From a virus (Duplodnaviria; Heunggongvirae; Uroviricota; Caudoviricetes), in IMG/VR virus record IMGVR_UViG_2737471849_000006: DNA of 28,600 bases, one strand, 5' to 3'. Shown here piece after piece: positions 8,980-27,211 of this stretch; within the stretch, counting starts at the first letter, position 1; every line of letters starts with the position of its first letter. The notes beneath the pieces were generated by a model that did no database searches, was not told the origin of the DNA, and saw only the letters and a list, made by a program, of their open reading frames with translations. The position numbers and the translations under genes are program-made.

Positions 8980-9507
8980 TTATTGCGGCATTTCCGGCCA
9001 TTCAGGATTTGCAGGATCCACACGGCTGACCAGAACGCTGTAACGTTCCCATGACTCCAGTCGTGCACGTTCCTCATCCGTCGCCATATTCAGCCTGACA
9101 GCGCGTTCCAGTGGCTGAATAACGTTTTCCGCTTCGGAAAGTAACGCGGCCTTTTGTGATTCTGCCTGTTGTTGCTGTTCATCTGCCGTATAAATCCGTT
9201 TAACCACAGCACCATCCTTAAACATCCATTTACCTGAGTCGTCAGCACGTCGGTTGGAGGTAATATCAGGAACCTCAACAACGCTAAAACCTTCAGGATT
9301 AAGCGTTGAAGCATCTCTGGTGATAGCGACAATAATATTATTTTCATCGTAAACAATCTTTATTGTGTCTGGCTGAAAGTTCTTCACTTCCTCATACCAG
9401 TTTTTTCCGTCTTCGGACCATAACCAGATAACATCAAAATTCTTTGTTAGCTGATATTGCTCTTTTGTTTTTGGATTACCTGACTTAATGTTCTTTAAAT
9501 GCTGCAT
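8980..9507 (-). CDS. G: tail fibre assembly chaperone gpG
   Basis: 175 aa, P2 gpG length, immediately downstream of tail fibre gene H. Confidence 0.88.
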
Positions 9508-9510
9508 AAC

Positions 9511-11520
9511 TTACACCTGCGCAACGTTATACCATGTGCCATTGATGTATTTTTGTATCGGCCTGAAGATGGCTTCATCATCGCCATCTACTTCACCAAT
9601 GATTCTTAATCCGGTAATCGTGTGTCCGGCTTTTTCATAACGACCACCTCGCGCCATCAATTGAACAACTCGCGTACCCAGGCGAACATCTTTCACATAG
9701 CGGGAATCAAAATTTCCCCAGTTGCTGGGTTGCATCTGACCGTTAACAGCAAATATTACCGAGTTATCTGTATTTCGCTGGCTATAGAAATGCCATCCGG
9801 CCTCATCGCCTAACTCTGCAACCACTGGACGGGTGGAAGCACCCCATAAATTAAAGGTAATATTCTTCGTGGATGTATTAGAGCTGGATAGCGAGAACTT
9901 TTTACTATCACCTGCCTGAATATTTTTAAAAGCAATAGCCACTCCATTCTGAAAACGGAATACACGCTGACTGTTAGCATAAACATCAAGAATACCGTCT
10001 CCATTCTGTTTAAATCCGGTATCATTATCACCAAGAACAATAGAGCTACCACCTAGTGCATTCGTCGTACCAACTCCAAAACAGCCATTAATGACGGCAT
10101 TAACAAGAATATTTAGTGCATCCCATTTCAACGTCATCAGGTCTTTTGTTGTGGTACTCTGGCGGCTTCTCCATTTGAAATATTCATTGCCGTTATCCCC
10201 CGTTTCAAACCACATGTATGAATCAGTGTCACCATCGGCATCATTTTTAAATCCAATCTTCGCCCAGTCAGTATTTCGAATCCAGGCAAGGATTGAGTCG
10301 TTTTCAAAAGTAAGTCCACCGGACAAGGTATCGCCATTTTTTTGCACGGCGTTCCCGGCTCGGTTTACCGTTTCCTGTAAACCGAGATATTCGATAACGG
10401 CGGCAACGGTCGATTTAGCCAGAATATCCCGCCCGACTTTTGTCAGGGTCGCCAGGCTGGCAACATCATTCCCCGTAAAATACGGAAACCTGTCTGCCGC
10501 AGTAGCAAGCCCCGCCAGCGCCGTCAGGGTAGCATCTTTCGGTTGCTTACCCGCAAGTGCATTAGTCATGGTGGTAGCAAAATTCGGGTCATTGCCCAGC
10601 GCCGCCGCCAGCTCGTTCAGCGTATTCAGTGCGTCAGGCGACGAGTCTACAAGGGCGGCAATCGCGGCCATAACGAAAGCCGTGTTTGCGATCTGAGTAT
10701 TATTCGTTCCCTGTCGCGCAGTTGGCGTCGTTGGCGTTCCGGTCAGTGCAGGGCTGTTTAATGGCGCTTTTTTGTTCGTTTCATCCATTACCGTCTTAAC
10801 GGCTTTTGGTGTTGCGGCGAGCGTTTCAGACGTGCTGTTGGTGGCGCTACTAAGCTGGACAAGGCCTTTTCGCGCTGTGGTGGCGTCCTGTGCGGTATAT
10901 TTCCCGTTAGCCAGGTCATACGCGGCCTTTACCGCTTTCGGCGTTGCGGCCAGTGTTTCAGACGTGCTGTTGGTCGCACTGCTTAACTGAGTAAAACCTT
11001 TTGCTGTCAGCGAGGCGTCCGGGTGACGTCGTGACTGTTCGTGCTCTGCAATTTTGTCATCAACGTAATCCTGCGTCGCCATCACCGTTGTGGTGTCAAT
11101 GGTCAGCTCCACTGAGGCCACACTGCTGACGATGATGACCATGCGACAGGTCTGCGAACGTCCTGAGCCTTCGGCAAGGGCTGGCTTATAGCTTTCGGCC
11201 ATGTTCGCCACGGCAATTAACGTTCCCGCATCATCGTACAGGCCAAGCTCACGCATCCAGAAACCGCCCACCTCCGGCGGAATAACCAGCTCTGCGATAA
11301 TATAATTACTGTTTCGTTTGTCCTGGCTGATTTTGTTCAGCGCATGTCGCCAGACTTCATGGATAAGCCCGGTCTGTCCGGCATCCGGGACAGGCAATTT
11401 ACCACCGCCATCCCCGACGGCCATCGTGGTAATGTTGACCTTCCGCCCTCCCGGTGCGGTTGCCGCTGCCAGCTTTGCTGCACCGGCAGTGGTGATAACG
11501 GTTTTGAATTTTGTGCTCAT
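9511..11520 (-). CDS. H: tail fibre protein gpH
   Basis: 669 aa, P2 gpH length. Contains a duplicated LSSATNSTSETLAATPKAVK motif and a C-terminal receptor-binding region. Confidence 0.9.
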   Translation of the reverse strand: MSTKFKTVITTAGAAKLAAATAPGGRKVNITTMAVGDGGGKLPVPDAGQTGLIHEVWRHALNKISQDKRNSNYIIAELVIPPEVGGFWMRELGLYDDAGTLIAVANMAESYKPALAEGSGRSQTCRMVIIVSSVASVELTIDTTTVMATQDYVDDKIAEHEQSRRHPDASLTAKGFTQLSSATNSTSETLAATPKAVKAAYDLANGKYTAQDATTARKGLVQLSSATNSTSETLAATPKAVKTVMDETNKKAPLNSPALTGTPTTPTARQGTNNTQIANTAFVMAAIAALVDSSPDALNTLNELAAALGNDPNFATTMTNALAGKQPKDATLTALAGLATAADRFPYFTGNDVASLATLTKVGRDILAKSTVAAVIEYLGLQETVNRAGNAVQKNGDTLSGGLTFENDSILAWIRNTDWAKIGFKNDADGDTDSYMWFETGDNGNEYFKWRSRQSTTTKDLMTLKWDALNILVNAVINGCFGVGTTNALGGSSIVLGDNDTGFKQNGDGILDVYANSQRVFRFQNGVAIAFKNIQAGDSKKFSLSSSNTSTKNITFNLWGASTRPVVAELGDEAGWHFYSQRNTDNSVIFAVNGQMQPSNWGNFDSRYVKDVRLGTRVVQLMARGGRYEKAGHTITGLRIIGEVDGDDEAIFRPIQKYINGTWYNVAQV
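10795..10990. repeat. imperfect direct repeat of ~60 bp inside tail fibre gene H
   Basis: The segment TTTCAGACGTGCTGTTGGT with flanks occurs twice (around 10820-10860 and 10950-10990) and encodes the duplicated LSSATNSTSETLAATPKAVK motif. Confidence 0.7.
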
Positions 11521-11530
11521 TATTCCTCAC

Positions 11531-12061
11531 TTATCCGGGGTAAACCGTAATTACATCGCCGTCGTAAGCCACACCACCGGCGAACAGGTAGCCGGGAATG
11601 TCCCGGGTAATGTTCAGGCCAATAAGGTGACGGCTTGCAGGTTTGGCATCAGCAATCAGCCGTTCCATTTCCTGATACATTGCCTCTGTGATACCGCTTT
11701 CCAGTACACCAATATCAAGCCGGAAGGTGCCGGGCGGGTCACTGTTTTCCCACCACTCCGTCACGTTGATGAGATAGCCGAGCGGCTCCACCACACGCCG
11801 GATTGCACCTATCGTGCCCTTATGACAGTGGATGAAATAGGCATCGCGGATAACGGCGCGTTTTGTCGCTTCCGGCCACTTTTCATCCCACCTGTCGACC
11901 GAAAACGCCCACGCCAGCCACGGCAGCAGATTTGCCGGACAGGTGTCCGGGTTCCACAGTTCACGAATACTGACCGGCGTTTTTTCAATTTCCGCACAGG
12001 CTTTTGCGGCGGCGACCTCAAGCGGTGATGAGCCGGTCGGCAGCAGTCGCGAATCACTCAT
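11531..12061 (-). CDS. I: baseplate assembly protein gpI
   Basis: 176 aa, P2 gpI length and order. Confidence 0.88.
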   Translation of the reverse strand: MSDSRLLPTGSSPLEVAAAKACAEIEKTPVSIRELWNPDTCPANLLPWLAWAFSVDRWDEKWPEATKRAVIRDAYFIHCHKGTIGAIRRVVEPLGYLINVTEWWENSDPPGTFRLDIGVLESGITEAMYQEMERLIADAKPASRHLIGLNITRDIPGYLFAGGVAYDGDVITVYPG

Positions 12062-12962
12062 CCGAGCCTCCGGTCACGACGCGGTATTCGGTACAGAAAG
12101 ACGCCTGCGTACTGTTGAGCACGATGTCGGCCAGTGGTGCAGCCAGTTCGACACGCTGCACACCTTCCACATGCAAAGCGGCATAAATGGCAGACAGACG
12201 GATGTCGCGCCCCAGCCGGTGCTGTGCCGTGATATACGCTTCCAGCTTTTTCACAGCGGCAGCGCGGATGGGTTCGCTTTCGGGACCAGGGTAAAGGTAA
12301 AGCGTGGCGTTTATCTGGTATTCAACGATGGCGGCAGACTGCACGGTCACGCGGTCGGCCACCGGCCTGACGTCCTCGCCATTAAGGGCGTTACGCACCA
12401 CAGCCAGCAGGTCTTCGGATGCGACGCCGTTATTTTCACGTGACAGCACAGAGATGGTGACACAGGCAGGAGACGGACTGGTGACAGAAATATCCGCGAC
12501 ACGCCCGTCAGCACTGCGACCATGATACTGATAGGCTCCCACTGACCCGGCGACGCTTAAGCCCTCAAAAGCCTGCTGAATACGCAGACGATAATCGGTG
12601 TCAGATTCCATCACTGCCGGTGTCGGCGGCATGGTCGAATCATCTGCCGGGGTGATAGTCAGGCGCGTGGTGTTGTAATTGGCACCAATCACATCAAGGT
12701 CATTACCGGCGGCACAGGCCAGCATCACCGCCCGTGCGGCCTCATTCACACGCTGACGCCAGATAAGCTCACGATAAGCATTTTCTTCCAGCAGTTTGAC
12801 GAGAGGCTCAGATTCCAGTGTCAGGGTACGGGCGACCGCCTCCTGCTGATCTTCCGGGTAAAGGGAAATCAGTGTCGCCTTGCGTTCAGCGAGAATGCTT
12901 TCAAAGTCCAGCTCCTCGACCACATCCGGTGCGGGTAGCTGGTTCAGGTCGATAATCGGCAT
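12054..12962 (-). CDS. J: baseplate wedge protein gpJ
   Basis: 302 aa, P2 gpJ length; overlaps the I start by 8 nt. Confidence 0.88.
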   Translation of the reverse strand: MPIIDLNQLPAPDVVEELDFESILAERKATLISLYPEDQQEAVARTLTLESEPLVKLLEENAYRELIWRQRVNEAARAVMLACAAGNDLDVIGANYNTTRLTITPADDSTMPPTPAVMESDTDYRLRIQQAFEGLSVAGSVGAYQYHGRSADGRVADISVTSPSPACVTISVLSRENNGVASEDLLAVVRNALNGEDVRPVADRVTVQSAAIVEYQINATLYLYPGPESEPIRAAAVKKLEAYITAQHRLGRDIRLSAIYAALHVEGVQRVELAAPLADIVLNSTQASFCTEYRVVTGGSDE

Positions 12963-12966
12963 GGTT

Positions 12967-13314
12967 TCAACTCACAGGGATGGTTAATGAAAGTGGCTGG
13001 CCGGTGTCGTTGTGCTGGCCGGTTAACGTGACCGTCATTCGCCCGTCAAAACTGCGCGCCGTGGTGACGGATGACAGGGTGACGCGGGGTTCCCATTTCA
13101 GCACTGCCATGTAACAGGCGACTTTAATCTGCAACTCAAGCGCCGGGGTCTGCGGCTGGTCAATCATTGACGCCAGCAACGAGCCGTAATCACGACGCAT
13201 CACCCGTGAGCCGACCGGTGTGCGCAGGATATCGCCGATACTCTGGCTGATATGCTCAAGGTCAGTGACAGTCAGGCCATCACTGCGATTCATTCCGAGA
13301 TAACGCGCTGTCAT
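12967..13314 (-). CDS. W: baseplate protein gpW (T4 gp25-like)
   Basis: 115 aa, P2 gpW length and order. Confidence 0.88.
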   Translation of the reverse strand: MTARYLGMNRSDGLTVTDLEHISQSIGDILRTPVGSRVMRRDYGSLLASMIDQPQTPALELQIKVACYMAVLKWEPRVTLSSVTTARSFDGRMTVTLTGQHNDTGQPLSLTIPVS

Positions 13315-13946
13315 AAAGGACTCCCGGTTGTGCCGCCGCTGTCGCCGGGGTGTTTATGGGTATGCAGTACCTTACCGTTTGATGAGAGTTCACCGCCGGT
13401 GTGTTCAATGTTGCCGCGCATCGTCCCGCCTTTCTGCACTTCCAGCGTGCCGGTAATCAGCCTGTTGGTGCAGACCACCTCCGGGGTGTCCAGGGTGACG
13501 CGGGTTGATGCTTTCACCATGACCACCGGCACCGTGGCAGTAACAGAATCAGAAGCCGTCACGCTGGCCGTTTTAATTCCGCTTACCGTGAGTGCACTGG
13601 TTTCGGGTTCATATTCAATCACCGCCCCGTCAGGGAAACGGATATGCAGGGCATCCGCCGACACAGACGGCGAGGGGTTATCGCCGGAATAAATCCCCGG
13701 CAGAACGAACGCCGTGTCGAGTTCACCACCCACGGCCAGAATCAGCACCTGTTCCCCCACGGAAGGTGCCCACCATGTGCGCGAACGTCCTGCGCGATGG
13801 GTCAGCCACTGAAGCCAGTCGGTGCACATGCCGCCGGTCTGCACGCGGCAGCGACCGGCGTTAAGGTCGGTTTCGACGATAATGCCAGTGCGAATCATGT
13901 TGCGCAGTGCGCGCGCGAGTTCCTGAATATTTGCGAGAGTGTTCAT
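13311..13946 (-). CDS. V: baseplate spike/assembly protein gpV
   Basis: 211 aa from the internal start MNTLANIQELARALRNM (cat at 13944-13946), matching P2 gpV as I recall it. The track ORF runs 6 codons further upstream. Confidence 0.85.
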   Translation of the reverse strand: MNTLANIQELARALRNMIRTGIIVETDLNAGRCRVQTGGMCTDWLQWLTHRAGRSRTWWAPSVGEQVLILAVGGELDTAFVLPGIYSGDNPSPSVSADALHIRFPDGAVIEYEPETSALTVSGIKTASVTASDSVTATVPVVMVKASTRVTLDTPEVVCTNRLITGTLEVQKGGTMRGNIEHTGGELSSNGKVLHTHKHPGDSGGTTGSPL

Positions 13947-14029
13947 GCATGTGAGATTGCACAATATATAAAAGTTATGCTATCTGGATTCATTTGTAGA
14001 ACTACCAGACAACATTCAAGGAGAGCGTA

Positions 14030-14815
14030 ATGGTCAGCTATAATGTGACTAATGTGTGGGGGCTAATCGTTTTTTTCCTTTGTAGCTTTGCAGTATTAGC
14101 ATTTTTTAGCTTTGGTAAAAGTAACCTTATGAGGCTTATTGCACATTATTTCAATTTTGGATATTCAGACAAAAAATTAAAAAGACTTGACCGCGAGTGG
14201 CGCGACATTCAACTATTTAAAATAATTAACGGAATCAATGTATCAGGCATTGAAAATGTGAGAATGATACAGCAGGGACTGATTGATGGAAAACTAAAAA
14301 CATCGTATTTTTTCCTTACTCGTATCTGGGGTGACATAACAAAACCACCACACATAATTAAAACAATAATTGTAATTCTGGCCAGTATTTTTTACATTCT
14401 CCTCGCATGTTACATACACAACGAACAATCCGTTATAGTAAGGGATGCCACAGGCATACCATATAAAAACATGATGTACTATGTTTATAGTGACAAAGTT
14501 CTTTTATCCTTCAAAAATAAAGCAGTTGAATTTAATAAAACTTATAGCCTTGCCGATTGCAAGAGACTGCAAAACGTATTTATAAAAGACACACTTCCTG
14601 AGATCGCCTGCAATAAGCTCTTACAGCTAAACGAGGAGGACTCCGAATGGTTAAGCCAGGAGATTAAAGATAATAACAGACACAAAAAAGCATTATTAAT
14701 ACTATCCCTCGTCTATTTCACTTCAGGTCTGGTTATATTCCTGTCATATACAAAATTCTTTTACGCCAATAAGAAGGTTTTAGAATACAAAGCATCAAAT
14801 AAAAATCACTCATAA
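14030..14815 (+). CDS. integral membrane protein with three predicted transmembrane helices; cargo gene in the orf30 slot between V and S, possible exclusion/abortive-infection factor
   Basis: 261-aa ORF with AAGGAG ribosome-binding site 7 nt before the ATG. Hydrophobic segments LIVFFLCSFAVLAFFSF, IIKTIIVILASIFYILLACYI and ALLILSLVYFTSGLVIFLSY. AT-rich, on the strand opposite the tail genes, followed by a hairpin at 14822-14856. Confidence 0.65.
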   Translation: MVSYNVTNVWGLIVFFLCSFAVLAFFSFGKSNLMRLIAHYFNFGYSDKKLKRLDREWRDIQLFKIINGINVSGIENVRMIQQGLIDGKLKTSYFFLTRIWGDITKPPHIIKTIIVILASIFYILLACYIHNEQSVIVRDATGIPYKNMMYYVYSDKVLLSFKNKAVEFNKTYSLADCKRLQNVFIKDTLPEIACNKLLQLNEEDSEWLSQEIKDNNRHKKALLILSLVYFTSGLVIFLSYTKFFYANKKVLEYKASNKNHS

Positions 14816-14821
14816 ACCTCT

Positions 14822-14856
14822 AAACATTGAGCGACCAGCATGGCCGCTCAATGTTT
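14822..14856 (+). terminator. stem-loop between convergent genes (membrane-protein gene and S)
   Basis: Arms AAACATTGAGCG (14822-14833) and CGCTCAATGTTT (14845-14856) form a perfect 12-bp inverted repeat, followed by AATT. The U-tract is weak. Confidence 0.5.
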
Positions 14857-14886
14857 AATTGCGCATCAGCCTCTGCCTGGATAAAA

Positions 14887-15339
14887 CTAACGCTCAAGGT
14901 GAGCCAGGATAATCTCTTCAATCATCTGCACATCCTCACCGGTAAAGCCGAGCAGGGGACGCGCCGGATAATCAATTTTCTTACCGTCTTTCCGGTTTTC
15001 TTCCGACAGACCAAACTGATGCACACTGGCGATTTTCGGCGACTTCCCGCCGTAAAATTCCATTGATGCCTGCTCCGGGCTGGCACGGATATGCAAAAAA
15101 CGACTAGTAATAAGTTTCGCAAACATTTTTCGCTTAACGCGACCGGTCTTTTTTCTGACGCTCTGCTGTTGGCGTGGCGCGTAGGGTGTGCCGTCCGGGG
15201 CTTTCTGTGCCATCACCCGACGCTGCTGACTCTGCCGCAGACGTTTCGCCAGTTCGGCACTCAGTCGCCGACGCCCTGACGGTGACAGCGATTCAATCAG
15301 TCCGGTCAGCCGGTCTTCAAAACGCTTAAACTCATTCAT
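14887..15339 (-). CDS. S: tail completion protein gpS
   Basis: 150 aa, P2 gpS length and order. Confidence 0.88.
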   Translation of the reverse strand: MNEFKRFEDRLTGLIESLSPSGRRRLSAELAKRLRQSQQRRVMAQKAPDGTPYAPRQQQSVRKKTGRVKRKMFAKLITSRFLHIRASPEQASMEFYGGKSPKIASVHQFGLSEENRKDGKKIDYPARPLLGFTGEDVQMIEEIILAHLER

Positions 15340-15799
15340 CCCACTTGCTCACCAGTTCGCCATTGATATAAAGCTCCATCGGGCGGGTGACCGGCTCCGG
15401 CGGCGTGGGTTCCGGGATATTCTTCACATGCAGCGCGCCGTCCACCTCACTGACCAGCGTGCGCTCGGTCAGCATCAGGCTGATGCTGATATCAAAGCTG
15501 CTGTCATTGTTGATGTCTGCATAAAACGTGAAGCCCTTTTTCTGGCCTTCGTCAGTGGTCATGATGTCGGGCTGATTTTCCCGCAGCCACGCCAGCACCG
15601 GCACGATGAGCAGGTCAAAATCACCGGTAAAGTCGGTCACAATGACATTGAGCGTGTAACGCTTTTCAAATGACAGCGACGTCGCCAGTGTGGAGGCAAT
15701 ACTCCCGTTATCCACGAATATCCGCAGCATCTCGGGACTGGTTTTCAGCACCGTGACGGCATCAGTCAGCGCCCTGCGCAGGCTGTCGGGTTTGAGCAT
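15332..15799 (-). CDS. R: tail completion protein gpR
   Basis: 155 aa, P2 gpR length and order. Confidence 0.88.
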   Translation of the reverse strand: MLKPDSLRRALTDAVTVLKTSPEMLRIFVDNGSIASTLATSLSFEKRYTLNVIVTDFTGDFDLLIVPVLAWLRENQPDIMTTDEGQKKGFTFYADINNDSSFDISISLMLTERTLVSEVDGALHVKNIPEPTPPEPVTRPMELYINGELVSKWDE

Positions 15800-16052
15800 C
15801 GTTTTCGTCCTGACAGTGTTTAATCATTTTTACCTGGCTGGCACAGCGTGCCAGCGCGTTCTCAAGCTGCCGGATATCGGCACTTAAATCACCGTTCGTC
15901 TCCGGGTCACTGCCCGGCATCGGGCAAAGGCTCACTTTCGGGCAGGCGTTGTGGACAATCACTGGCGTCAGTGCAGGCCGGGCGCTGGTGCAACCGGCGC
16001 ACAGCATCAGGTAGGTCAGCGCCGTACCAGCGGCGAAAATCTTCGTTTTCAT
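15762..16052 (-). CDS. lysC: Rz1-like outer-membrane lipoprotein spanin LysC
   Basis: 96 aa with signal peptide and lipobox (LMLCAGC). Lies in an alternate frame overlapping the 3' part of lysB and the 5' end of R, the classic embedded Rz1 arrangement. Confidence 0.75.
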   Translation of the reverse strand: MKTKIFAAGTALTYLMLCAGCTSARPALTPVIVHNACPKVSLCPMPGSDPETNGDLSADIRQLENALARCASQVKMIKHCQDENDAQTRQPAQGAD

Positions 16053-16332
16053 TCAGTAACCTCGTGATGGTTTTCTCGCGCTGTGCTTCACGTTTCGCGG
16101 CGTTCTCCAGTTCCTGACGCAGTGCCACCTGCGCCAGCTCGTTTTTATCTGCCCTGGTGAGCGCAACATGAAGCTGATTTTTCAGCATGGTGATGGTCGT
16201 CTGCTGACCGCTGGCGACGTTGTTCGCCCTGTCCAGCGAGGCGCGCAGGCTGGCATTTTTGTGTTTCACCAGAAACAGACCGGCCACCGCCAGCGATAAC
16301 AACACGACCAGCACAATCATCAGCCTTGACAT
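15907..16332 (-). CDS. lysB: Rz-like inner-membrane spanin LysB
   Basis: 141 aa with an N-terminal transmembrane anchor, a coiled-coil periplasmic domain and a Pro-rich C-terminus. Confidence 0.85.
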   Translation of the reverse strand: MSRLMIVLVVLLSLAVAGLFLVKHKNASLRASLDRANNVASGQQTTITMLKNQLHVALTRADKNELAQVALRQELENAAKREAQREKTITRLLNENEDFRRWYGADLPDAVRRLHQRPACTDASDCPQRLPESEPLPDAGQ

Positions 16333-16745
16333 GGTTCCCGCCCCTCAAAACGCTGACGGCAGGCCGTACGTATCAGTCGGAAGAACACCGATGCCACGAG
16401 ATAAATCAGCGCGGTAAAAATCCACCCGGCAGCGACCAGCGAGATAAACGTCGCCACCATCACCACCAGAGCCGCTGCCCGTCTGCGCCACGGCACCGGC
16501 TGCAAAAACAGCGACGTGACAATCTTCACGGCCAGCGATTCCGGCGGCAGCTCCCGCCCGTAGCGTTCCAGCACATACTCAGTGGCATACACGCCGACAC
16601 CAACGGCAACCACACAGATAACCGTCGCCAGAATCGCCCAGGCAGCGACAAAATTGACGGCCACGCTCTGCGGGTAAATCAGGGACAGTGCCAGCATCAG
16701 CGCCAGCGACACATTCAGCATCAGTGAAAGGGATAATTTCTTCAT
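16320..16745 (-). CDS. lysA: lysis-timing membrane protein LysA
   Basis: 141 aa with several hydrophobic helices, P2 LysA length and position. Confidence 0.82.
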   Translation of the reverse strand: MKKLSLSLMLNVSLALMLALSLIYPQSVAVNFVAAWAILATVICVVAVGVGVYATEYVLERYGRELPPESLAVKIVTSLFLQPVPWRRRAAALVVMVATFISLVAAGWIFTALIYLVASVFFRLIRTACRQRFEGREPCQG

Positions 16746-16759
16746 GGTGTTTACTCCGT

Positions 16760-17257
16760 TTAAGCCGGTACGCCGCCAGCGGTACGCCAGACGGTGACCA
16801 GTTTTTCCAGTGAATGCTCACGCTGACCGTAACCGGCACCCGGCAGGGACGCCCAGATATTGCGACAGCGTGAAATGGCGCGCTCAATGCGTCCCGCCCG
16901 GATGTCATCCAGTGCACCGCGTTCGCGGATCAACTGAATGGCGAGCCTGTCCTGTGACAACGGACTGAAATCCGGCAGGGCAAGCTGTTTGCGGTAATGC
17001 GGCCAGAACAGGTAAAGCTGCTGATAGCGACCGGAGGCCGTGGATTTTTCACCGCGACGGTTAAACACCTTCGCCGGTCGGCCATGCGCGAACGGGTGGT
17101 CACTGTAGTCGGTGAAAATTTCCGGCTTCCCGTCCAGTCCGGTGACTATCACGTCATAGCCCCGGTTTTTCGTCAGTGGATGATTCGCCGTCCCTTCGGA
17201 CACGGCCAGCATGTCGAGAAAGGCGGCGATATTCTGATGCGTGTTAATTACCGGCAT
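16760..17257 (-). CDS. K: endolysin gpK
   Basis: 165 aa, P2 gpK length; lysozyme-like catalytic region containing VSEGT. Confidence 0.88.
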   Translation of the reverse strand: MPVINTHQNIAAFLDMLAVSEGTANHPLTKNRGYDVIVTGLDGKPEIFTDYSDHPFAHGRPAKVFNRRGEKSTASGRYQQLYLFWPHYRKQLALPDFSPLSQDRLAIQLIRERGALDDIRAGRIERAISRCRNIWASLPGAGYGQREHSLEKLVTVWRTAGGVPA

Positions 17258-17538
17258 TACTGTTTCCCCCTGCCCTTAAAGCGGCGCTGAATGGCAATCT
17301 CAATCACCTGATAACCGGCGATACCCAGCATGGAGCCGATGCCGCACACCGCTGGCAGTGACAGGTCAGGAAACTGCACCAGAACAACACCGGCAACCAT
17401 CGAGACAAAACCACCGAGCAACATGCGCCCGATAAACAGACGCGGGGTGATAGGTTCACCACCGGCAAGCACCTTGCCGACAACAATCAGCACCCCAATC
17501 ATGAAAAGCGACAGGACGCTTTTTTCTTCTGCTGTCAT
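17257..17538 (-). CDS. Y: holin gpY
   Basis: 93 aa with hydrophobic helices and a charged C-terminus (RRFKGRGKQ); P2 gpY length. Confidence 0.88.
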   Translation of the reverse strand: MTAEEKSVLSLFMIGVLIVVGKVLAGGEPITPRLFIGRMLLGGFVSMVAGVVLVQFPDLSLPAVCGIGSMLGIAGYQVIEIAIQRRFKGRGKQ

Positions 17539-17541
17539 GCG

Positions 17542-17607
17542 TTACTCCCACAGATTGACAGTTTCAGCCACGGGCGCGGTCTGAACGTCGGGCAGTTCGA
17601 CGGCGGT
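17542..17607 (-). pseudogene. X: 3' remnant of tail gene X (last ~21 codons only)
   Basis: The C-terminal TAVELPDVQTAPVAETVNLWE matches the end of P2 gpX as I recall it. Everything upstream in that frame (from about 17608) is the reverse complement of terminase P coding sequence, not X. Confidence 0.7.
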
Positions 17608-18453
17608 GAACGCGTGGAAATCGACGTCAGTCATAACGCCCTTGCCGGTGGGCTTCTCTGTGCGGACGGCCAGTGGCGGCAGATTGTCACCATTGAAGAC
17701 GCCCTGAAAGGCGGCTGCACATTGTTCGACATTGAGCAGCTCAAACGCGAAAACAGCGCCGACGATTTTAAAAACCTGTTCATGTGTGAATTTGTTGACG
17801 ACAAGGCATCGGTGTTCCCGTTCGAGGAGCTGCAACGCTGCATGGTCGACACGCTGGAAGAATGGGAAGACTATGCGCCGTTTGCCGCCAATCCGTTCGG
17901 CTCCCGCCCGGTATGGATTGGTTACGACCCGTCACACCGTGGCGACAGCGCCGGATGCGTGGTACTGGCACCGCCGGTGGTGGCCGGTGGCAAATTCAGA
18001 ATACTTGAGCGTCACCAGTGGAAAGGCATGGACTTTGCCACCCAGGCGGAATCCATCCGCAAACTCACCGAAAAATACAACGTCGAATACATCGGTATTG
18101 ATGCCACCGGCCTCGGTGTCGGCGTGTTCCAGCTCGTGCGCTCGTTCTATCCCGCCGCGCGTGATATCCGCTACACGCCGGAAATGAAAACCGCAATGGT
18201 GCTCAAGGCAAAAGACGTTATCCGCCGTGGCTGTCTGGAATACGACGTCAGCGCCACCGACATCACCAGCTCGTTTATGGCTATCCGCAAGACCATGACC
18301 AGCAGCGGACGCAGCGCCACCTATGAGGCCAGCCGCAGCGAGGAAGCCAGCCACGCCGACCTCGCCTGGGCGACCATGCACGCCCTGTTAAATGAGCCAC
18401 TCACCGCCGGTATCAGCACCCCGCTGACATCCACCATTCTGGAGTTTTACTGA
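17608..18453 (+). pseudogene. P: 5'-truncated terminase large subunit gpP (C-terminal ~280 codons, nuclease domain)
   Basis: The stop overlaps the Q start (TGATG at ~18451-18455) as in P2. P2 gpP is 590 aa; the reading frame here is abutted directly by the X remnant with no O, N, M or L between. The exact deletion breakpoint near 17605-17610 is approximate. Confidence 0.75.
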
Positions 18454-19487
18454 TGAGCAAGAAAAAAGGGAAAACACCGCAACCTGCGGCAAAAACAATG
18501 ACCGCCAGCGGCCCGAAAATGGAGGCATTCACCTTTGGTGAGCCGGTGCCGGTACTCGACCGCCGTGACATTCTGGATTACGTCGAGTGCATCAGTAACG
18601 GCAGATGGTATGAGCCACCGGTCAGCTTTACCGGTCTGGCAAAAAGCCTGCGGGCTGCCGTGCATCACAGCTCGCCGATTTACGTCAAACGCAATATTCT
18701 GGCCTCGACATTTATCCCGCATCCATGGCTTTCCCAGCAGGATTTCAGCCGCTTTGTGCTGGATTTTCTGGTGTTCGGTAATGCGTTTCTGGAAAAGCGT
18801 TACAGCACCACCGGTAAGGTCATCAGACTGGAAACCTCACCGGCAAAATATACCCGCCGTGGCGTGGAAGAGGATGTTTACTGGTGGGTGCCGTCCTTCA
18901 ACGAGCCGACAGCCTTCGCGCCCGGCTCCGTGTTTCACCTGCTGGAGCCGGATATTAATCAGGAGCTGTACGGCCTGCCGGAATATCTCAGCGCCCTTAA
19001 CTCTGCCTGGCTGAATGAGTCGGCCACGTTGTTCCGCCGCAAGTATTACGAAAATGGCGCACATGCCGGATACATCATGTACGTCACCGATGCCGTGCAG
19101 GATCGCAACGATATCGAAATGCTTCGCGAAAACATGGTCAAGTCGAAAGGCCGCAACAACTTTAAAAACCTGTTTCTCTATGCCCCACAGGGGAAAGCCG
19201 ACGGCATTAAAATTATCCCCCTCAGTGAAGTGGCGACGAAGGACGATTTTTTTAATATCAAAAAAGCCAGCGCCGCTGACCTGCTGGACGCGCACCGCAT
19301 CCCCTTTCAGTTGATGGGTGGCAAGCCGGAGAACGTCGGGTCGCTGGGTGATATTGAGAAAGTGGCAAAGGTCTTTGTCCGCAATGAGCTTATCCCGTTA
19401 CAGGACAGGATCCGCGAGATAAACGGCTGGCTCGGTCAGGAGGTCATCCGCTTTAAAAACTACTCACTGGACACTGACAACGGCTGA
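18453..19487 (+). CDS. Q: portal (capsid) protein gpQ
   Basis: 344 aa starting MSKKKGKTPQPAAKTMTASGPKMEAFTFGEP, the P2 gpQ length and N-terminus. Confidence 0.9.
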   Translation: MSKKKGKTPQPAAKTMTASGPKMEAFTFGEPVPVLDRRDILDYVECISNGRWYEPPVSFTGLAKSLRAAVHHSSPIYVKRNILASTFIPHPWLSQQDFSRFVLDFLVFGNAFLEKRYSTTGKVIRLETSPAKYTRRGVEEDVYWWVPSFNEPTAFAPGSVFHLLEPDINQELYGLPEYLSALNSAWLNESATLFRRKYYENGAHAGYIMYVTDAVQDRNDIEMLRENMVKSKGRNNFKNLFLYAPQGKADGIKIIPLSEVATKDDFFNIKKASAADLLDAHRIPFQLMGGKPENVGSLGDIEKVAKVFVRNELIPLQDRIREINGWLGQEVIRFKNYSLDTDNG

Positions 19488-19491
19488 ACAT

Positions 19492-19516
19492 CGCCGCCTG
19501 CGGGCGGCTTTTTTAC
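19492..19516 (+). terminator. rho-independent terminator downstream of Q
   Basis: GC-rich hairpin CGCCGCCTGCGGGCGGC followed by a TTTTTT run, 5 nt after the Q stop. Confidence 0.75.
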
Positions 19517-19656
19517 AACCCGCCATCACGCCCTCACACGCTCACCACCGCACAAAACAGCCCGCATACACACCAACGCCCCGGCGAACAATCTAAACGC
19601 CATCACGACGCGCTCAGACGCTGAAAAAATAAAATCAGCACCACCGCCAGCGCGCA

Positions 19657-19675
19657 GTGCTTTCCCCGCCTCGCC
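19657..19675. other. cos: cos site (19-nt cohesive-end sequence)
   Basis: GTGCTTTCCCCGCCTCGCC is the exact reverse complement of the P2 cohesive end GGCGAGGCGGGGAAAGCAC as I recall it. Confidence 0.85.
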
Positions 19676-19812: not shown

Positions 19813-20814
19813 TCACCGAGCCATCTTGACTGCATAATGAACACAAAAATAATGTTCTCCCGCATATCTAAAATGATGTTCAATTTTTCTCAAACCTATA
19901 TATGGAGTCTCCACTTCTTTAATCCCAACTATCTCATGAGATTCTACACCAATATCTACCGGAGTAATCTCTTTTAGATAATCAATGTATCTCTCACACC
20001 AAGCATCAAATTTTGCACCAGTATAATAAGCAATTAAAAACAAGCGTTTAACATTAATAGGATTATAGTTACTAATTAGCTTTGAATAATGCTTTAATAT
20101 GTTAGCTTGATCTAGAGATTTTAAAATCAATGCTTCTATTATAGCAAATAGATTTCCTTTATCTTCAATAACAAGATCTAATTCACCCGCACTTTTACCA
20201 GATTGAGACTCTCCCTCTCTAGTTTGATCTTTTACCTCATAATTCTTAGCTAATAACATATCCCGTATAAAATCATTAAAATCATCTTCACCATATCCTT
20301 TAGCAGAGCGACGCCCCAATCTTTGAAGCACCCAAGATAAATCACTATCAAACTTTATAAAATTCAAAGGACGCTGCACTCGACCATCCTTTGATATTAA
20401 GCTTATACTATTAAGATTTAACAAATTAATCCTTTGCCTGATTAATTCATCAATATATCCAGAGTAACTATTATTATCTAACACTACGATATGCTTATCA
20501 AAAGTAGTGGCTGCATTAGCAACTGCACAAACAACTATATCCTTAATATCCTCAGAACTATTCGGCACTGGTGTACGCAATATCTTGCCTGAAGGAGCTT
20601 TAGATAACTCAGACTCCCACTTCTTAAAAAACAAAAAAGAATCCTTGTTGTTTCCGCAAGACTTTAAATAACCTAAGCGAATTTTTCCATCAGCATCAAG
20701 AATCAACTCATTTTCACCATTAACAATGGTTTCAATAAAAAAACCGCTAAAAACTTTAACATCAGAAATATTAGCAGCAACAAATTCAGGACACAAACAA
20801 ACAGCACAAAGCAT
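19813..20814 (-). CDS. partner/effector of the OLD-family ATPase; function unassigned, possible nuclease
   Basis: 333-aa ORF whose ATG follows the ATPase stop codon by 1 nt (TGAtATG). AT-rich. Contains ELDLVIEDKG and LILDADGK acidic motifs but no domain I can assign with confidence. Confidence 0.65.
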   Translation of the reverse strand: MLCAVCLCPEFVAANISDVKVFSGFFIETIVNGENELILDADGKIRLGYLKSCGNNKDSFLFFKKWESELSKAPSGKILRTPVPNSSEDIKDIVVCAVANAATTFDKHIVVLDNNSYSGYIDELIRQRINLLNLNSISLISKDGRVQRPLNFIKFDSDLSWVLQRLGRRSAKGYGEDDFNDFIRDMLLAKNYEVKDQTREGESQSGKSAGELDLVIEDKGNLFAIIEALILKSLDQANILKHYSKLISNYNPINVKRLFLIAYYTGAKFDAWCERYIDYLKEITPVDIGVESHEIVGIKEVETPYIGLRKIEHHFRYAGEHYFCVHYAVKMAR

Positions 20815-20815
20815 A

Positions 20816-22483
20816 TCAATGAACTCCCTTTGAGTTCATTATTTTTTGTATCTTTAATTCCTGTATTCTAATTGTATCCTGAATCTCAACATCCATAAAC
20901 TCATTTGGCCATGTGATATCTCCATCAGAATTCACAGCCACTCTATTTAGTAAGGTTGATGTTCCCTCTTCATCTCGCTCAAGATGATAGATTGCCACAT
21001 GGTCCTCAGTAAGTTCGCTTGATTCATCAACAATTCTTAATCTAATCCGTCTAACTAATGCATCACTATGTGTTTCAATAATAAAAATTTTCTTTTCTTG
21101 CATAGATATTTTAATTAATGCGTCAGTTAACCATGCCTGCATTTTAGGATGCAAATGTATTTCTGGTTGTTCTATTATTGTAATCGAGCCCTTTGGTGAC
21201 AAATAAGCTTGAACCAAGACAGGCAACACTTGTGATATTCCAAACCCTACATCTGTCAATTCTAAATTAACAGCATCTTGGTTTATAACTATCTTATGAA
21301 TTATGTCATTAACTCTAACTATATCAACCGCTAAGTTAAATTCAGCGAGAAGAAGGTTTATGTTTTCTGTTATTTTTGTATTTTTCTTCAGAATCTCCGC
21401 CAACTCAGAGCCATCAGCAGAATTTAACTGAGCATGATTGACTGTTTTATCTAATAAATAATAACGCTGAGGAAATGCCCTCAACGGGCTGACATGATTA
21501 ACATTTTCGCCATCAAACATTTTTGAAAGCATTAATACTCCCAGAGAAACAACATGTGACAAAAAGTTAACAACAGGGTTGTAGGAATTTCCAAAAAAAA
21601 CATAAAAACCACGTCCTTCATTGACAGGGAATAGCCCCAAAGAATAAGGATTCATGATTTCTAAGATATCAGACTTACATCCTCTAAATACTTCTTGAGG
21701 GATAACATCCGACAATACAACGACATTATTCTTTTTGGGTAACAGTTCAACTATTCTTTCATCATTCTTATTTAGAAGAACAAATCTCGAAACCTTTACC
21801 ACACCTTTATTTTTATCATATCTGAAGTCATAACTTATTTTAGATGCAGACAATTTATTTCCTGAAATAGAAACAACTTTAGTTAGGCAATCTTTGATTC
21901 TCTTCAATGGGCATTCATATATAAATCTGCGTAAGTTTTCTGAGGTAGCCCGGCTAAACATAATATTATTGCCAGCATCTCTAAAAAGCATAATCAACTG
22001 GCACAATTTATCAGCAATAATATTTAATTTAGCCTCCTCAAACTCATCAAAATTAACAATAGCATTCAAAGATTCATTTATCAAATTATTGGCCTTCGCG
22101 ACCAACTCATCATTATTTTTTACTGTCTGTATAGTGAATCGCATAATCATAGCAAATGATTCTAAAGTTTCTCTTCTCAGAGTATCAATGCCATTTTTAA
22201 CTACGCTATTATCAGAAAAATCAAAGCTAAAGTTAAGTGTTTTGGAGTCATCTTTATTTTTTATAATATTTAATGCTTCCCCCATTCCCACTTTAGGTCC
22301 ATTCAGCCGTAGAGCAGAGTCAGACAATGACATTGAATCAACTGTCTGAGAAAACATCAACAAAGAGTTAATTAGTGCACTTTTTCCACAACTATTTGCA
22401 CCTAACAATATTGTCAATGGCTTTAAATCTAACTTAAAGCTTTCGTATGCTTTATAATTTTGTCCTGTAAAAGTTCTCAGCAT
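20816..22483 (-). CDS. OLD-family (AAA_15/AAA_21-type) ABC ATPase without a fused nuclease domain
   Basis: 555 aa. N-terminal Walker A LGANSCGKSALINSL; C-terminal IIEQPEIHLHP (Walker B/D-loop signature of OLD/GajA/AriA/PtuA-type ATPases) and FIIETHSDALV (H-loop); a long insert lies between. AGGAG ribosome-binding site 5 nt before the ATG. AT-rich. Confidence 0.75.
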   Translation of the reverse strand: MLRTFTGQNYKAYESFKLDLKPLTILLGANSCGKSALINSLLMFSQTVDSMSLSDSALRLNGPKVGMGEALNIIKNKDDSKTLNFSFDFSDNSVVKNGIDTLRRETLESFAMIMRFTIQTVKNNDELVAKANNLINESLNAIVNFDEFEEAKLNIIADKLCQLIMLFRDAGNNIMFSRATSENLRRFIYECPLKRIKDCLTKVVSISGNKLSASKISYDFRYDKNKGVVKVSRFVLLNKNDERIVELLPKKNNVVVLSDVIPQEVFRGCKSDILEIMNPYSLGLFPVNEGRGFYVFFGNSYNPVVNFLSHVVSLGVLMLSKMFDGENVNHVSPLRAFPQRYYLLDKTVNHAQLNSADGSELAEILKKNTKITENINLLLAEFNLAVDIVRVNDIIHKIVINQDAVNLELTDVGFGISQVLPVLVQAYLSPKGSITIIEQPEIHLHPKMQAWLTDALIKISMQEKKIFIIETHSDALVRRIRLRIVDESSELTEDHVAIYHLERDEEGTSTLLNRVAVNSDGDITWPNEFMDVEIQDTIRIQELKIQKIMNSKGVH

Positions 22484-22722: not shown

Positions 22723-24993
22723 TTATACTACAAATTCCGGCCACTCATCAGCGACCGGATACGTGAATCCTTTCCCGCCATAATTTACGGTCGCGCCACG
22801 CGCCAGCGCCTCAATCTCCCATCGCTGCGGCCTGATACCGTTCTGAGCAAGGTCAACACGGATACGGGTAATTTGCATTCGTTCCGACCTGGTCAGTCTG
22901 GCCGATGGCGCTATTTCATGCGGTTTTAACGGACTTCCGTTTCTTTGCTGACGGTTTGGTCTTCTCAGGCCGTGTTTTAATGCGCTTCTGAGCGCCCTCA
23001 CGACCTCCTGGTCATTCCATTCGATAACACCGTCATCAACCAGATTAAGCACTGCTGCGGCGTGTTCAGAAGGTGTGGGAGCCGGTAACGAAGTATCACC
23101 ACCGGTGAGCTTTCCACAGTTATTGACAGGACTCCGAGGCGCGGCGATGCCGCTTTTTAAAGTCAAAGGCTCAACGACCGGAACTTTCGGCACAATGCGC
23201 CAGTTCGTCGTTCTGGTGATATGAATATGACGCGCGCCGAGATGCGGCGCGTAAATGCCGACCACTCTCTCGACCTCTTCCTCGTACTCGTTAACATCAT
23301 CCGACGGGCTACGGGCAACCCTGACAGTCTGACAATCGCGCGGGACATTTGCCCCACCCTGCGCGCTGATATACAACGCAAAATCACCACTGTCTGCGGC
23401 AGCGCGAGCAGCCTCGACGCGTTCGTCAAACTCATCAGCAATACTGACGCCGCGAGGCAATTTGCGTAGTTCACGGTAAGCCCCCATTGTCGGCAGTCCA
23501 ACCGTTTTAAATTGCGGGATGCGCCACGTTGACGCCCATGCGGTAACAGCCGCGGCAGTATCTTTAAGCGGCTTACCGGTATCGTTATCGAGCTGACCAT
23601 CCAGTGCATAGCCGTCGATATTTTTTGAAATGTATTTCGCGATATATCCCGCAGCACCGCCCCGATTAAGGTGTTTTGCCTGAAAACGGTTTCGCGCGGC
23701 TCCTCTTTCGTCGCCATCCTCTTTGAGCGCATAGCGACGCATGATTTCGATAATCTGGTTACGCTGGCGCGGATTACAAAAAAGCATCATATGCCAGTGC
23801 GGCGTTCCGTCGTGGTGTGGCTCGACGACACGCAAACCGTAGACCTGTAAATCATTATCCTTGAATGCCGTGCGCATCAGGCTCCAGATACGGCAGAGAT
23901 AACGCTGCGCATCCTTTGGATTGAATGCCTCATCATTCCAGCCGTGATTAAGCTGGACGGTTTTACTTTCGCCTTTTCCGACCTGACGTGTCGGGTGATA
24001 CTTTGACGGCGCGGTCAGCGTGATAAACATCCCCACATCACCCTCTGCGGCGGCGTAACGCTCAATACCGGCAATGGTGTTCATCAGCTCCATCCGGCGA
24101 ATTTCAGGATTAGAAATACTGCCCATCACCTTACTGATAAGGTCGATGCGCTCGCCGGTTTCCCTGTTTTCAAGGTCACACGATTTAAGAAATTCCAGAT
24201 TTGCCTGGCGGCGCGCACGCACATCACGAATGGCGTGTTTACTGGCATAAGGAGAACGGTCTTTATTGACCTCCCCGACAGCTATCAGTAACGCTTCATG
24301 CCAGCGCATACGCTGGCCTTTAAGCTGATGAGTCCACCACTCATCGTTAAACAGACGGGCAATGGCAGAATATGCCTGCCTCGTGGTCATCAGCCCTTTA
24401 CGGTATTTTTTCCAGTAGAGAGGGGAAATATTGAAAGCACGTGCAGCGCCAGCAACATGACCATAGAGGTGAGCCTGCGCCTCATCCGTAAACAGCGATT
24501 CTTTTTCGCCATGCGCATCCACCCAGGCATCGCTGAGTTCCTCATACATCATGAAAAGCTGCGATGAGATACGGGCAGCAAACTTTTTCAGCTCCTTGTC
24601 ATTCATTCCCGGCAGGCGCGCATAGTGGTCACGCTCTGCCAGAAACAGTAACGACGCGTCGGTGTTCATTTCATGGCGCTGATTCACACGCTCAATGCGC
24701 GGCCATAAACGACGCTGAAAAGTGGATGTGAGGAAATAAAACCCGTGCACCGGGCTTTTATTGCGCCGGATGTAGTCATAGCGTGAAGTAAACAGCGAGC
24801 GCAAAAAGTAAGGCAGGCGGTTAATCGTGGATAAAACACCTTGCACCTGACGCATCTCGTCACGTGTAAGGGGTCTTTCGCGCCCGACGGCCTCGCGTGG
24901 CGCGTTCCATGCATAAGCACCGGTAAACGCCTTACCGGTGCCTGCAGCAAATGCTGACGGAGGGACAAAACGCCCGGAGGCTTTAACGGCCAT
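22723..24993 (-). CDS. A: rolling-circle replication initiator gpA
   Basis: About 756 aa from the internal start MAVKASGRFVPP (P2 gpA N-terminus as I recall it; the track ORF extends 14 codons further to 25035). Contains the HUH-type HWHMMLF motif and the catalytic Tyr region YIAKYISK. Confidence 0.85.
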   Translation of the reverse strand: MAVKASGRFVPPSAFAAGTGKAFTGAYAWNAPREAVGRERPLTRDEMRQVQGVLSTINRLPYFLRSLFTSRYDYIRRNKSPVHGFYFLTSTFQRRLWPRIERVNQRHEMNTDASLLFLAERDHYARLPGMNDKELKKFAARISSQLFMMYEELSDAWVDAHGEKESLFTDEAQAHLYGHVAGAARAFNISPLYWKKYRKGLMTTRQAYSAIARLFNDEWWTHQLKGQRMRWHEALLIAVGEVNKDRSPYASKHAIRDVRARRQANLEFLKSCDLENRETGERIDLISKVMGSISNPEIRRMELMNTIAGIERYAAAEGDVGMFITLTAPSKYHPTRQVGKGESKTVQLNHGWNDEAFNPKDAQRYLCRIWSLMRTAFKDNDLQVYGLRVVEPHHDGTPHWHMMLFCNPRQRNQIIEIMRRYALKEDGDERGAARNRFQAKHLNRGGAAGYIAKYISKNIDGYALDGQLDNDTGKPLKDTAAAVTAWASTWRIPQFKTVGLPTMGAYRELRKLPRGVSIADEFDERVEAARAAADSGDFALYISAQGGANVPRDCQTVRVARSPSDDVNEYEEEVERVVGIYAPHLGARHIHITRTTNWRIVPKVPVVEPLTLKSGIAAPRSPVNNCGKLTGGDTSLPAPTPSEHAAAVLNLVDDGVIEWNDQEVVRALRSALKHGLRRPNRQQRNGSPLKPHEIAPSARLTRSERMQITRIRVDLAQNGIRPQRWEIEALARGATVNYGGKGFTYPVADEWPEFVV

Positions 24994-25258
24994 ATGAGCC
25001 AAAAGCCTCTGAACAACGCCTGCTGAGTTGCTCAACCTGCGCGTTTAAATCAGCAAAAGACTTTGCGCTTCCGATCAGAATATCGTGATGCATCAGGCCG
25101 GAAACGAGCTGGCTTAATTTCGGGTAATAACCAACCACCGCCAGCCATTCCTGACCGGCGTTTTTACCGCTTTCCGCTCTCTTTTTCTCGTGGAGAATAA
25201 ACTGAAAGCTGTCACTGGTAACGACATAACGTTCGCCAATTTCAATACGAATGCTCAT
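24983..25258 (-). CDS. hypothetical early-operon protein
   Basis: 91-aa ORF in the B-to-A early operon; its end overlaps the A start by 11 nt. No recognisable motif. Confidence 0.5.
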   Translation of the reverse strand: MSIRIEIGERYVVTSDSFQFILHEKKRAESGKNAGQEWLAVVGYYPKLSQLVSGLMHHDILIGSAKSFADLNAQVEQLSRRCSEAFGSYGR

Positions 25259-25479
25259 GCCATTCTCCGGTAATGTTTGTTTTTTGCTTCAAAGACTGAC
25301 TGACAGGAAACACAACGCGTGGCTGACGGATAAGCCGCACGACGGGCAGCAGGTATTGGCGCGTCACACTCTTCGCAAACCAGCGCAGAAGCACCGCAAT
25401 GTTTTACTCTTGCCGCGTTAATCTGGCGCTCCAGTAATTCAGCCTGTTGTTCCTGAATAAAATCTACGTTGTCCGGCAT
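25255..25479 (-). CDS. TraR/DksA-family C4 zinc-finger protein
   Basis: 74 aa with CEEC...(18 residues)...CVSC spacing typical of TraR/DksA zinc fingers; P2-like phages carry such a gene in the early operon. Confidence 0.65.
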   Translation of the reverse strand: MPDNVDFIQEQQAELLERQINAARVKHCGASALVCEECDAPIPAARRAAYPSATRCVSCQSVFEAKNKHYRRMA

Positions 25480-25784
25480 TACCAGCTCCTTTTGTCGTTA
25501 AGTTTTTTAAATTCATCAGCGCAATAGCTGGCAATTTCTGTCGTTAATTTCGTCAGTTCATCCACGGAGGAGATTTGCTTGTGAAATACAGCGCGTTTAA
25601 CAAGTAAATTGACCACATCAGACAGGAGATTTAATTCGTTCTGATAAATCGCGATAACAGACTCAGTTATTTCGCGTTTTTCTTTATCAAGACCAAGTTG
25701 AATAAGAGATAAATCGCCATTTTTCATAACAGCGATTTTTAAGGCGTTATTCAGTAATACAACTGAATGAGAACAGGACATCAA
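25479..25784 (-). CDS. hypothetical early-operon protein
   Basis: 101-aa track ORF; an internal Met at codon 20 would give 82 aa. Start not resolved. Confidence 0.45.
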
Positions 25785-26005
25785 AGCACCTCCCCGCGAG
25801 ATAATCCGATATTGTGAAATTTTTCCGACTCCTGACTGAGCAGCTCGACTATCTCCACGCGGGATAACTCCGCCTTTGTGATGTGGCGAATCATGGCGTC
25901 AAGATGAGAAGAAAAGCGCGTCGCTGCGTCGGCCTGTGCTTCGGTTCTGGCCTGTTGCAGCAGTAATGCGTATTTACCGCACTGATTTTCAGAAACTGTA
26001 TGCAT
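25781..26005 (-). CDS. hypothetical early-operon protein
   Basis: 74-aa ORF between B and the next early gene; 4-nt overlap with the downstream ORF. Confidence 0.45.
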
Positions 26006-26068
26006 GACTTTCTCCAGGCAAAAAGAAGCCCCGCACGATTAAGTGCGTTAAAAACTCTGGTTAATTAC

Positions 26069-26569
26069 TTAATGCAGATATTGCTCTGGTTTTACCGACG
26101 TCAGAATTGTCGGTGCATACTCAAACAGACTGAATAATTCACGTAACGCACGGAATAAAGCATCACGCCAGTAACATGACTCTTCATTAATTCGCCAGTA
26201 TGGCTGGTTAAATTCTTTTTCAGTCAATCCGGCATGCATAAATAAAGTACGGCGCTGACTGACTGTTAAAAAACTAATATATGCATACTCACTTGCGCCA
26301 ACCTGACGGCGTTTTGAGAATGCCCCACGCAATTCATCAATTGCACATACCAGTCGTTCACGTTCGACGTCGTTCATTTCTTCAAAACGCATCGTTGCGT
26401 GACGCTGTTTTAACTGCGCATGGAAGCAAACCGTTAGCCGTTCACGTTCCATCATCTGATTATAATAATCGCATGTATCCTGCCAGCGAGGGACGGCCAG
26501 ATGCTTACCAATTATCCGGCGCATAGCTGCTGGCTGTTTTTCAACAAGATTGAGCGTCATCACTGTCAT
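26069..26569 (-). CDS. B: replication protein gpB
   Basis: 166 aa, P2 gpB length and position in the early operon. Confidence 0.8.
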   Translation of the reverse strand: MTVMTLNLVEKQPAAMRRIIGKHLAVPRWQDTCDYYNQMMERERLTVCFHAQLKQRHATMRFEEMNDVERERLVCAIDELRGAFSKRRQVGASEYAYISFLTVSQRRTLFMHAGLTEKEFNQPYWRINEESCYWRDALFRALRELFSLFEYAPTILTSVKPEQYLH

Positions 26570-27118: not shown

Positions 27119-27211
27119 AAGATTTGCGATTCACCAACTGGAGCCATCTAGAGCCTTTTTGAGCGAATCACAAATTGCCAAGTAGCAATATAATTGGAGA
27201 TTAGCAAAATT
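27119..27211. promoter_or_regulatory. immunity switch region between divergent cox-like and C genes, with candidate operator direct repeats and a -10 element
   Basis: Direct repeats GCGATTCAC (27126-27134) and GCGAATCAC (27163-27171); consensus TATAAT at 27189-27194 upstream of C. The promoter assignment is inferred from position. Confidence 0.4.

Follow-up and report, generated by a model that had tools for sequence, protein, structure and literature searches.

A P2-like prophage that has lost its capsid module and kept most of the rest of its genome raises the question of how the loss came about and what is left behind: a producer of phage tails, a domesticated carrier of defence genes, an element dependent on a helper phage, or a newly broken prophage. 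Here we examine such a case in a stretch of 28,600 nt (the window), which BLAST against P2 (NC_001895) identifies as a P2-type prophage in reverse complement, running from ogr to the int stop codon. Window positions 1–17608 correspond to P2 24254–6646 at 99.2% nucleotide identity, and positions 17608–19675 to P2 2066–1 at 98.7%, and then cos, whose 19-nt cohesive-end sequence (19657–19675) is intact in the alignment to P2; the A–B replication region is 96.7% identical in the same searches. The gene order and sequence of P2 are thus kept over the late, early and cos regions, with about 19.7 kb of late and cos sequence aligned, and we assign the element to Peduovirus.

Apart from P, O, N, M, L and X, discussed below, the other P2 proteins are present at full length with 93–100% amino acid identity (tblastn), cox, C and int being the exceptions at 35–53% protein identity to their P2 counterparts. 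The bulk of the late region (1–14886, minus strand) holds intact ogr, D, U, T, E, FII, FI, G, H, I, J, W and V by tblastn, and is followed by Y, K, lysA, lysB, lysC, R and S (14887–17538, minus strand), all of them intact, full-length open reading frames within the same 93–100% range, with holin Y at 17257–17538 (minus strand). Tail-fibre gene H contains a 76-nt direct repeat, about 79% similar between its copies (window 10795–10870 and 10927–11002), seen as offset self-matches to P2 H. The early region (22723–28600) comprises A, orf83–80, B and orf78, and then a diverged cox/C/int segment in which int encodes 331 aa and ends at the window edge. This immunity and integration module is, by its sequence, heteroimmune to P2; over window 26747–28600, C is 50%, Int 53% and Cox 35% identical to the P2 proteins, and the program calls a Cox open reading frame of 123 aa, where sibling loci have 118 aa and P2 has 91 aa.

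The window also carries accessory genes. Both fun(Z) (6993–8579, plus strand) and orf30 (14030–14815, plus strand) are intact by tblastn; fun(Z) matches the NCBIfam family ‘P-loop ATPase, Sll1717 family’ (E = 4.5e-62) and no PADLOC model. In place of P2 old/tin lies a two-gene cargo (19813–22483, minus strand), which profile searches and the literature place at the P2 defence hotspot next to cos that Rousset et al. reported (PMC9122126). The product of one cargo gene is a 555-aa AAA_15/AAA_21 ATPase, for which NsnB, HEC-03B and PDC-M55A are the best PADLOC models. The other product, of 333 aa, belongs to no Pfam, NCBIfam or PADLOC family and is indexed in 651 blocks. The same pair of cargo genes occurs in all 10 loci listed for the 333-aa protein, mostly intact P2-like prophages.

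Aligned pairwise with P2 and with L013, an intact sibling prophage (see below), the window shows a deletion junction at 17607/17608, where 4,580 bp are absent. The two flanking blocks are collinear with P2 and join seamlessly across the lost segment, P2 2067–6645, which held P codons 1–309, the divergent late promoters PP and PO with their activator site, O, N, M and L, and X codons 1–46; tblastn returned zero matches to O, N, M or L across the whole window. The initial annotation had proposed that some 4 to 5 kb was missing relative to P2, that holin Y is followed by about 21 codons of X, and that the C-terminal half of P lies beyond them on the opposite strand and overlaps an intact Q, and the alignments bear out each of these readings. 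The X remnant consists of the last 21 codons and the stop (aa 47–67; 17542–17607, minus strand; 100% identical by tblastn). The truncated terminase large subunit, P', comprises codons 310–590 and the stop (17608–18453, plus strand; alignment, tblastn and Pfam), and its stop codon overlaps the start of the portal gene Q at 18453. Q itself (18453–19487, plus strand) is intact and its product is 100% identical to P2 gpQ; its own promoter, PP, is among the deleted elements.

What survives of the two truncated genes can be read from their domains. The P' open reading frame called by the program is 279 aa long, starting at a GTG at 17614, and a profile search shows that P' retains a complete Terminase_6C nuclease domain, with the ATPase domain down to its last 49 profile positions. 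The gpX protein is a six-copy baseplate ‘glue’ protein with a LysM fold at residues 1 to about 49 (bioRxiv 10.64898/2026.09.14.750843); because residues 47–67 alone survive of X, this fold is lost. The fused 97-aa open reading frame that spans the junction has no Pfam match. With O, N, M and L absent and P and X truncated, genes essential to the virion have been lost, and the capsid and packaging module has been removed by a simple deletion, as had been suggested. The accompanying claim that the element cannot build heads is likewise upheld; neither head formation nor packaging would be expected of it, with capsid, scaffold and both functions of the terminase predicted to be gone. Equally correct was the view that cos and the replication, immunity and integrase genes are kept: cos is intact, and A, B, C, cox and int are all present.

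How old is this deletion? Look-up of the 333-aa cargo protein listed 10 related prophages, and one of them, the intact sibling L013 on a 345-kb gut-metagenome scaffold, carries the full P-O-N-M-L-X module. Between the window and L013 there are 0 mismatches in 3,216 nt on the Y side of the junction and 2 in 10,994 nt on the P side, and since an intact relative is nearly identical on both flanks, the deletion is very recent. We found no second carrier. Among 5,426 complete E. coli genomes, none matched a 301-bp query across the junction; GTDB (one genome per species) and IMG/VR both lack the junction 24-mer; and the gene-position index has no record of either junction-spanning open reading frame (97 and 30 aa). 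The junction is a single, very young event or, less probably, an assembly error. Sibling prophages L012–L016 adjoin a radical-SAM activase gene in the ycaO-focA-pflB region.

The junction offers little homology for recombination to have used: 1 nt is shared when P2 is taken as the reference and 2 nt (TG) when the parent is L013, with TG present in both the X-side and the P-side parent sequence and no repeat at the junction in either alignment. We consider it very probable that one illegitimate-recombination event took 4,580 bp out of an otherwise intact, heteroimmune E. coli P2-like prophage and produced a fresh defective prophage. In this event the two deletion ends would have been joined through the 2 nt (TG) in a single step, and the resulting loss of the ATPase half of P, the PP/PO region, O, N, M, L and two thirds of X would have left the prophage non-viable. 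Neither a tally of active phages nor one of tailocin loci should include it.

The consequences of the deletion extend beyond the genes it removed. In the P2 record (NC_001895), the P operon (P, Q) starts at 3016 and the O operon (O, N, M, L, X, Y, K, lysA, lysB, R, S) at 3127, with a shared activator site at 3057–3087, and both starts and the activator site lie within the deleted segment. The X remnant, Y, K, lysABC, R and S are therefore orphaned of their annotated promoter, as PO and the activator site fall in the deletion, and the P2 operon map together with a crude promoter scan predicts that the genes for holin, endolysin and spanins, R, S and P'-Q no longer undergo late transcription. 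Intact open reading frames can thus be orphaned by deletion of a shared promoter. A crude consensus scan of the minus strand found no sigma-70-like site between Y and the cargo genes, and terminator-like hairpins are present there in the consensus scan; read-through into Y–S from the same-strand cargo genes could still occur. No substitute Ogr site was found near the junction in a scan for TGT-N12-ACA, a scan that is uninformative because the known PV and PF sites equally escaped detection.

Two statements of the initial annotation need revision in this light. That the lysis cassette is kept holds for its open reading frames, which are intact and full length; their expression would probably be lost, as PO, their sole annotated promoter, is deleted and no substitute appeared in the promoter scan. 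The contractile tail, described as complete, is not so: gpX is reduced to aa 47–67, its LysM fold gone, and since gpX is missing a normal baseplate would not be expected. Under Ogr, the V and F tail operons should plausibly still work, as should immunity, Int/Cox, A/B/ori and cos, and likewise fun(Z), orf30 and the pair of ATPase-cargo genes in the defence hotspot.

The preservation of these last genes invites a different view, in which the prophage has been domesticated, its lethal late functions disabled and the remainder kept by selection for the defence cargo and immunity. The cargo is located in a known P2 defence hotspot, defective P2 elements with near-identical defence genes are on record (PMC13586616), and one deletion has neatly disabled both morphogenesis and lysis. 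We nevertheless regard domestication as improbable. Long-term retention would be accompanied by decay, and here no other gene has decayed, the intact sibling differs by 0–2 nt and the junction has no second carrier. Retention for the cargo cannot be inferred, because the deletion is too young for selection to have acted. P2 is not damage-inducible, moreover, which makes any benefit of disarming it doubtful.

Comparable losses, again joined at microhomologies, are seen in many other P2-like prophages and favour the recombination account. Late-region deletions are common in kind and rare in frequency: a 601-nt stretch of P is whole in 1,518 of the 1,538 matching records from complete E. coli genomes, and where the identical Q protein occurs P is intact in all 10 of 10 diverse contexts. 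The other deletions, given as joined P2 coordinates, include 5588/2505, 6143/2998, 5360/1705, 5591/1502, 23482/2505 and 23804/1958, with several more inside tail genes, and have 2–6 nt of microhomology. The junction of the window (6646/2066, TG) is an ordinary member of these microhomology late-region deletions. Some endpoints are reused with different partners (2505; 5588–5591; 19400–19403; 23742; 23803/4; loci L029, L032, L033, L035, L036, L004, L015, L007 and L009); endpoint 5588, for example, is joined to 2505, 1502 and 2117, and endpoint 23742 to 2118 and 10679, and a TA(N)CC-like microhomology is common to many of these reused-endpoint junctions. Among the 10 prophages listed through the cargo protein, three have other large deletions or truncations: in L015 the cargo is joined straight to J, L018 has lost lysB–R, and L021 breaks off at N, where host ycaO follows. 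As these three differ in their lesions, late-region decay takes many forms.

One endpoint stands apart for its precision. Look-up of the exact 279-aa P' open reading frame gave 10 loci, in eight of which P' adjoins different partners (D', H, the region upstream of E, FI', T', the start of V, and ogr-D'); these eight loci occupy three chromosomal integration sites and have differing integrases and cargo. All eight end on the P side at one and the same nucleotide, P2 2117/2118, which is the Ala292/Tyr293 codon boundary of P, and the retained DNA at these hotspot junctions always starts 5'-TACCCGTTCTGGTC. Further partners came from a pattern search, from two complete genomes and from an unrelated 263-aa open reading frame, bringing the set to at least 13 distinct left endpoints (2646, 5588, ~10283, ~14345, 17606, 18402, 19400, 21296, 21682, 21978, 22409, 23191 and 23742). 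This exact P-side endpoint occurs in L002–L005 and L007–L010 (near locus position 9944), in L022–L024 and L026–L028, and in L034, L035 and L037 (at 2353, 2102 and 2898, respectively). All hotspot junctions fit a break at GCC/TACCCG, with 0–5 nt of microhomology reading inward from the fixed end, and P'-Q-cos-cargo-A...int is the retained side in every case. The site lies at the foot of a hairpin, T[ACCCG]TTCTGGT[CGGGT] (5-bp stem), inside an 8-bp inverted repeat (P2 2133–2073). We considered whether the choice of query had created this pattern and rejected the idea, because a 279-aa open reading frame would be called for any endpoint across P2 2061–2182, yet eight of eight fall at one nucleotide, and the 263-aa open reading frame gave another case. 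The literature that we searched holds no description of the hotspot, and to our knowledge a fragile site in gene P of P2-like prophages has not been described.

The deleted segment of the window includes the hotspot, 51 nt in from its P-side end, and the window junction does not use it. Might the window deletion nonetheless stem from the same process, with hairpin breakage or replication arrest followed by loss of the end? The hotspot lies between the arms of its 8-bp inverted repeat, and the window junction (P2 2066) is 7–8 nt past the right-hand arm; the window and hotspot deletions have the same polarity, the Q-cos-early side being retained and the late side lost. Yet the at least 13 hotspot events retain their end nucleotide-exact, while the window lost 51 nt more, the hotspot included; other P endpoints are also common (1502, 1705, 1958, 2505 and 2998), and an endpoint would be expected to fall within 51 nt of the hotspot by chance in about 6% of cases. 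A shared origin is thus unlikely, because hotspot events never lose end bases and the window did. We give similarly low credence to the broader proposal that P carries a nucleotide-exact fragile site which strips the late region one way, with the window junction an imprecise product of that process. If this fragile-site reading were true, inactivation of P2 prophages would be a directed, recurrent route and not random decay, and P'-Q-cos, the defence cargo and the replication and immunity genes would always be preserved.

An assembly or sequencing artefact, either a chimeric join or a collapsed minority variant, would be in keeping with a junction that is confined to the window sequence and with the existence of an otherwise identical intact version. 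We judge it very unlikely for the window. The flanks have just 2 nt in common, which leaves no repeat for an assembler to collapse and makes repeat-driven misassembly unlikely, and equivalent junctions occur in many independent assemblies, complete genomes included.

Finally, the suggestion that the element is a tailocin-like producer, which would have lost its capsid and still make and release contractile tail particles, draws on the intact sheath, tube, tape measure, baseplate V/W/J/I, fibre H/G, D, U and ogr genes with their own operons, and is extremely unlikely given that gpX is down to 21 residues without its LysM fold, that PO, which drives the lysis genes and R and S, is deleted, that the portal, replication, integrase and immunity genes and cos remain, as they do not in a dedicated tailocin locus, and that a unique junction and a near-identical intact sibling offer nothing to suggest that selection has conserved this architecture. 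A gpX homologue and a lysis cassette controlled by the locus's own regulator are typical of tailocin loci, which as a rule have no portal, replication or integrase genes and no cos. R-type tailocins such as the Pseudomonas R-pyocins, which are related to the P2 tail, resemble the window in having P2-type sheath, tube, baseplate and fibre genes without capsid genes; in contrast to them, the window has X destroyed, the lysis promoter gone, and portal, cos, replication and integrase kept.

The defective P2-like prophage as a kind is already known: earlier work reports ‘likely defective P2-like prophages’ whose defence genes are conserved (PMC13586616), and we observed such elements directly (L002–L010, L029–L037). 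Like other defective E. coli P2-like prophages, the window has P2 gene order and att/int context, with morphogenesis genes deleted and accessory defence genes intact; it differs in having one deletion with all else intact and a unique junction, whereas most others are far more decayed. It also recalls helper-dependent defective phages and the P2/P4 pair, as it keeps cos, replication, integration and ogr, lacks capsid genes, and would be packageable solely by helper proteins, as in the P2/P4 helper–satellite relation. We speculate that a co-resident or infecting P2-like helper could replicate the element and package it via cos at about 86% of wild-type length. The element is not itself a P4-type satellite: its gene content is P2 throughout, without dedicated helper-exploitation genes of the sid, psu, delta or epsilon type, it lacks genes for capsid-size redirection or helper derepression and there is no evidence of its mobilization, and, compared with an 11-kb satellite, it is a near-full-length phage of about 29 kb.

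Returning to the hotspot, an endpoint with at least 13 partners, together with the other reused endpoints, suggests that features of sequence or replication partly steer how P2-like prophages decay, and endpoint reuse bears on how prophages become fixed defence islands. We propose that the hotspot could arise either through replication arrest and template switching, during rolling-circle or in situ replication, or through a site-specific nuclease. The geometry of the site would be compatible with the former: with synthesis proceeding from ori through cos and Q into P, the nascent strand would arrest just after copying the hairpin and then switch template forward. The hotspot resembles one-ended hotspots such as the M13 and pC194 origin nicks and IS ends in its fixed endpoint, its many partners and its 0–5 nt of microhomology, and differs from them in that no IS lies at the junctions and the fixed site is not the P2 ori.

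Several specific candidates for the break were tried and set aside. A pseudo-origin for gpA was suggested by the CGCC/T likeness, but the annotated nick lies 2–3 nt further on (CCTC(G)/GAG, 29891/2), and similarity anchored on the ori nick ranks in the thousands of 67,148 positions, that is, at chance level. IS-mediated adjacent deletion is contradicted by the absence of IS or foreign DNA at any junction, and IS110-type bridge-RNA or REP/RAYT cleavage at GCCTAC by a CT core in only about 3 of 11 partner sites on inspection. Protection from RecBCD by Chi would not be expected to give single-nucleotide precision, and there is no Chi at the site. Nor is the secondary structure exceptional, the 61-nt DNA fold having a z of -1.5 to -1.7. 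For terminase cutting at a pseudo-cos, the site CGGGTA/GGCG compared with the top-strand cos nick CGGGCG/GGCG ranks about 140–400 of 67,148; on this weak similarity, such cutting may be only distantly possible.

A low-power search of IMG/VR found no deletions of reverse polarity at the hotspot. BLAST matched the deleted side at 1,736 places, the retained side at 1,751 and the 601-nt span at 1,763, which may point to roughly 27 right-only against 12 left-only places. Two P genes, both otherwise intact, have small lesions on or beside the hotspot: L025 (minus strand, ~2250) has a 1-nt deletion, GCC to GC, exactly at the break position, in a low-coverage contig where it may be a sequencing error, and L006 carries, near 9950, one additional T in the loop of the hotspot hairpin.
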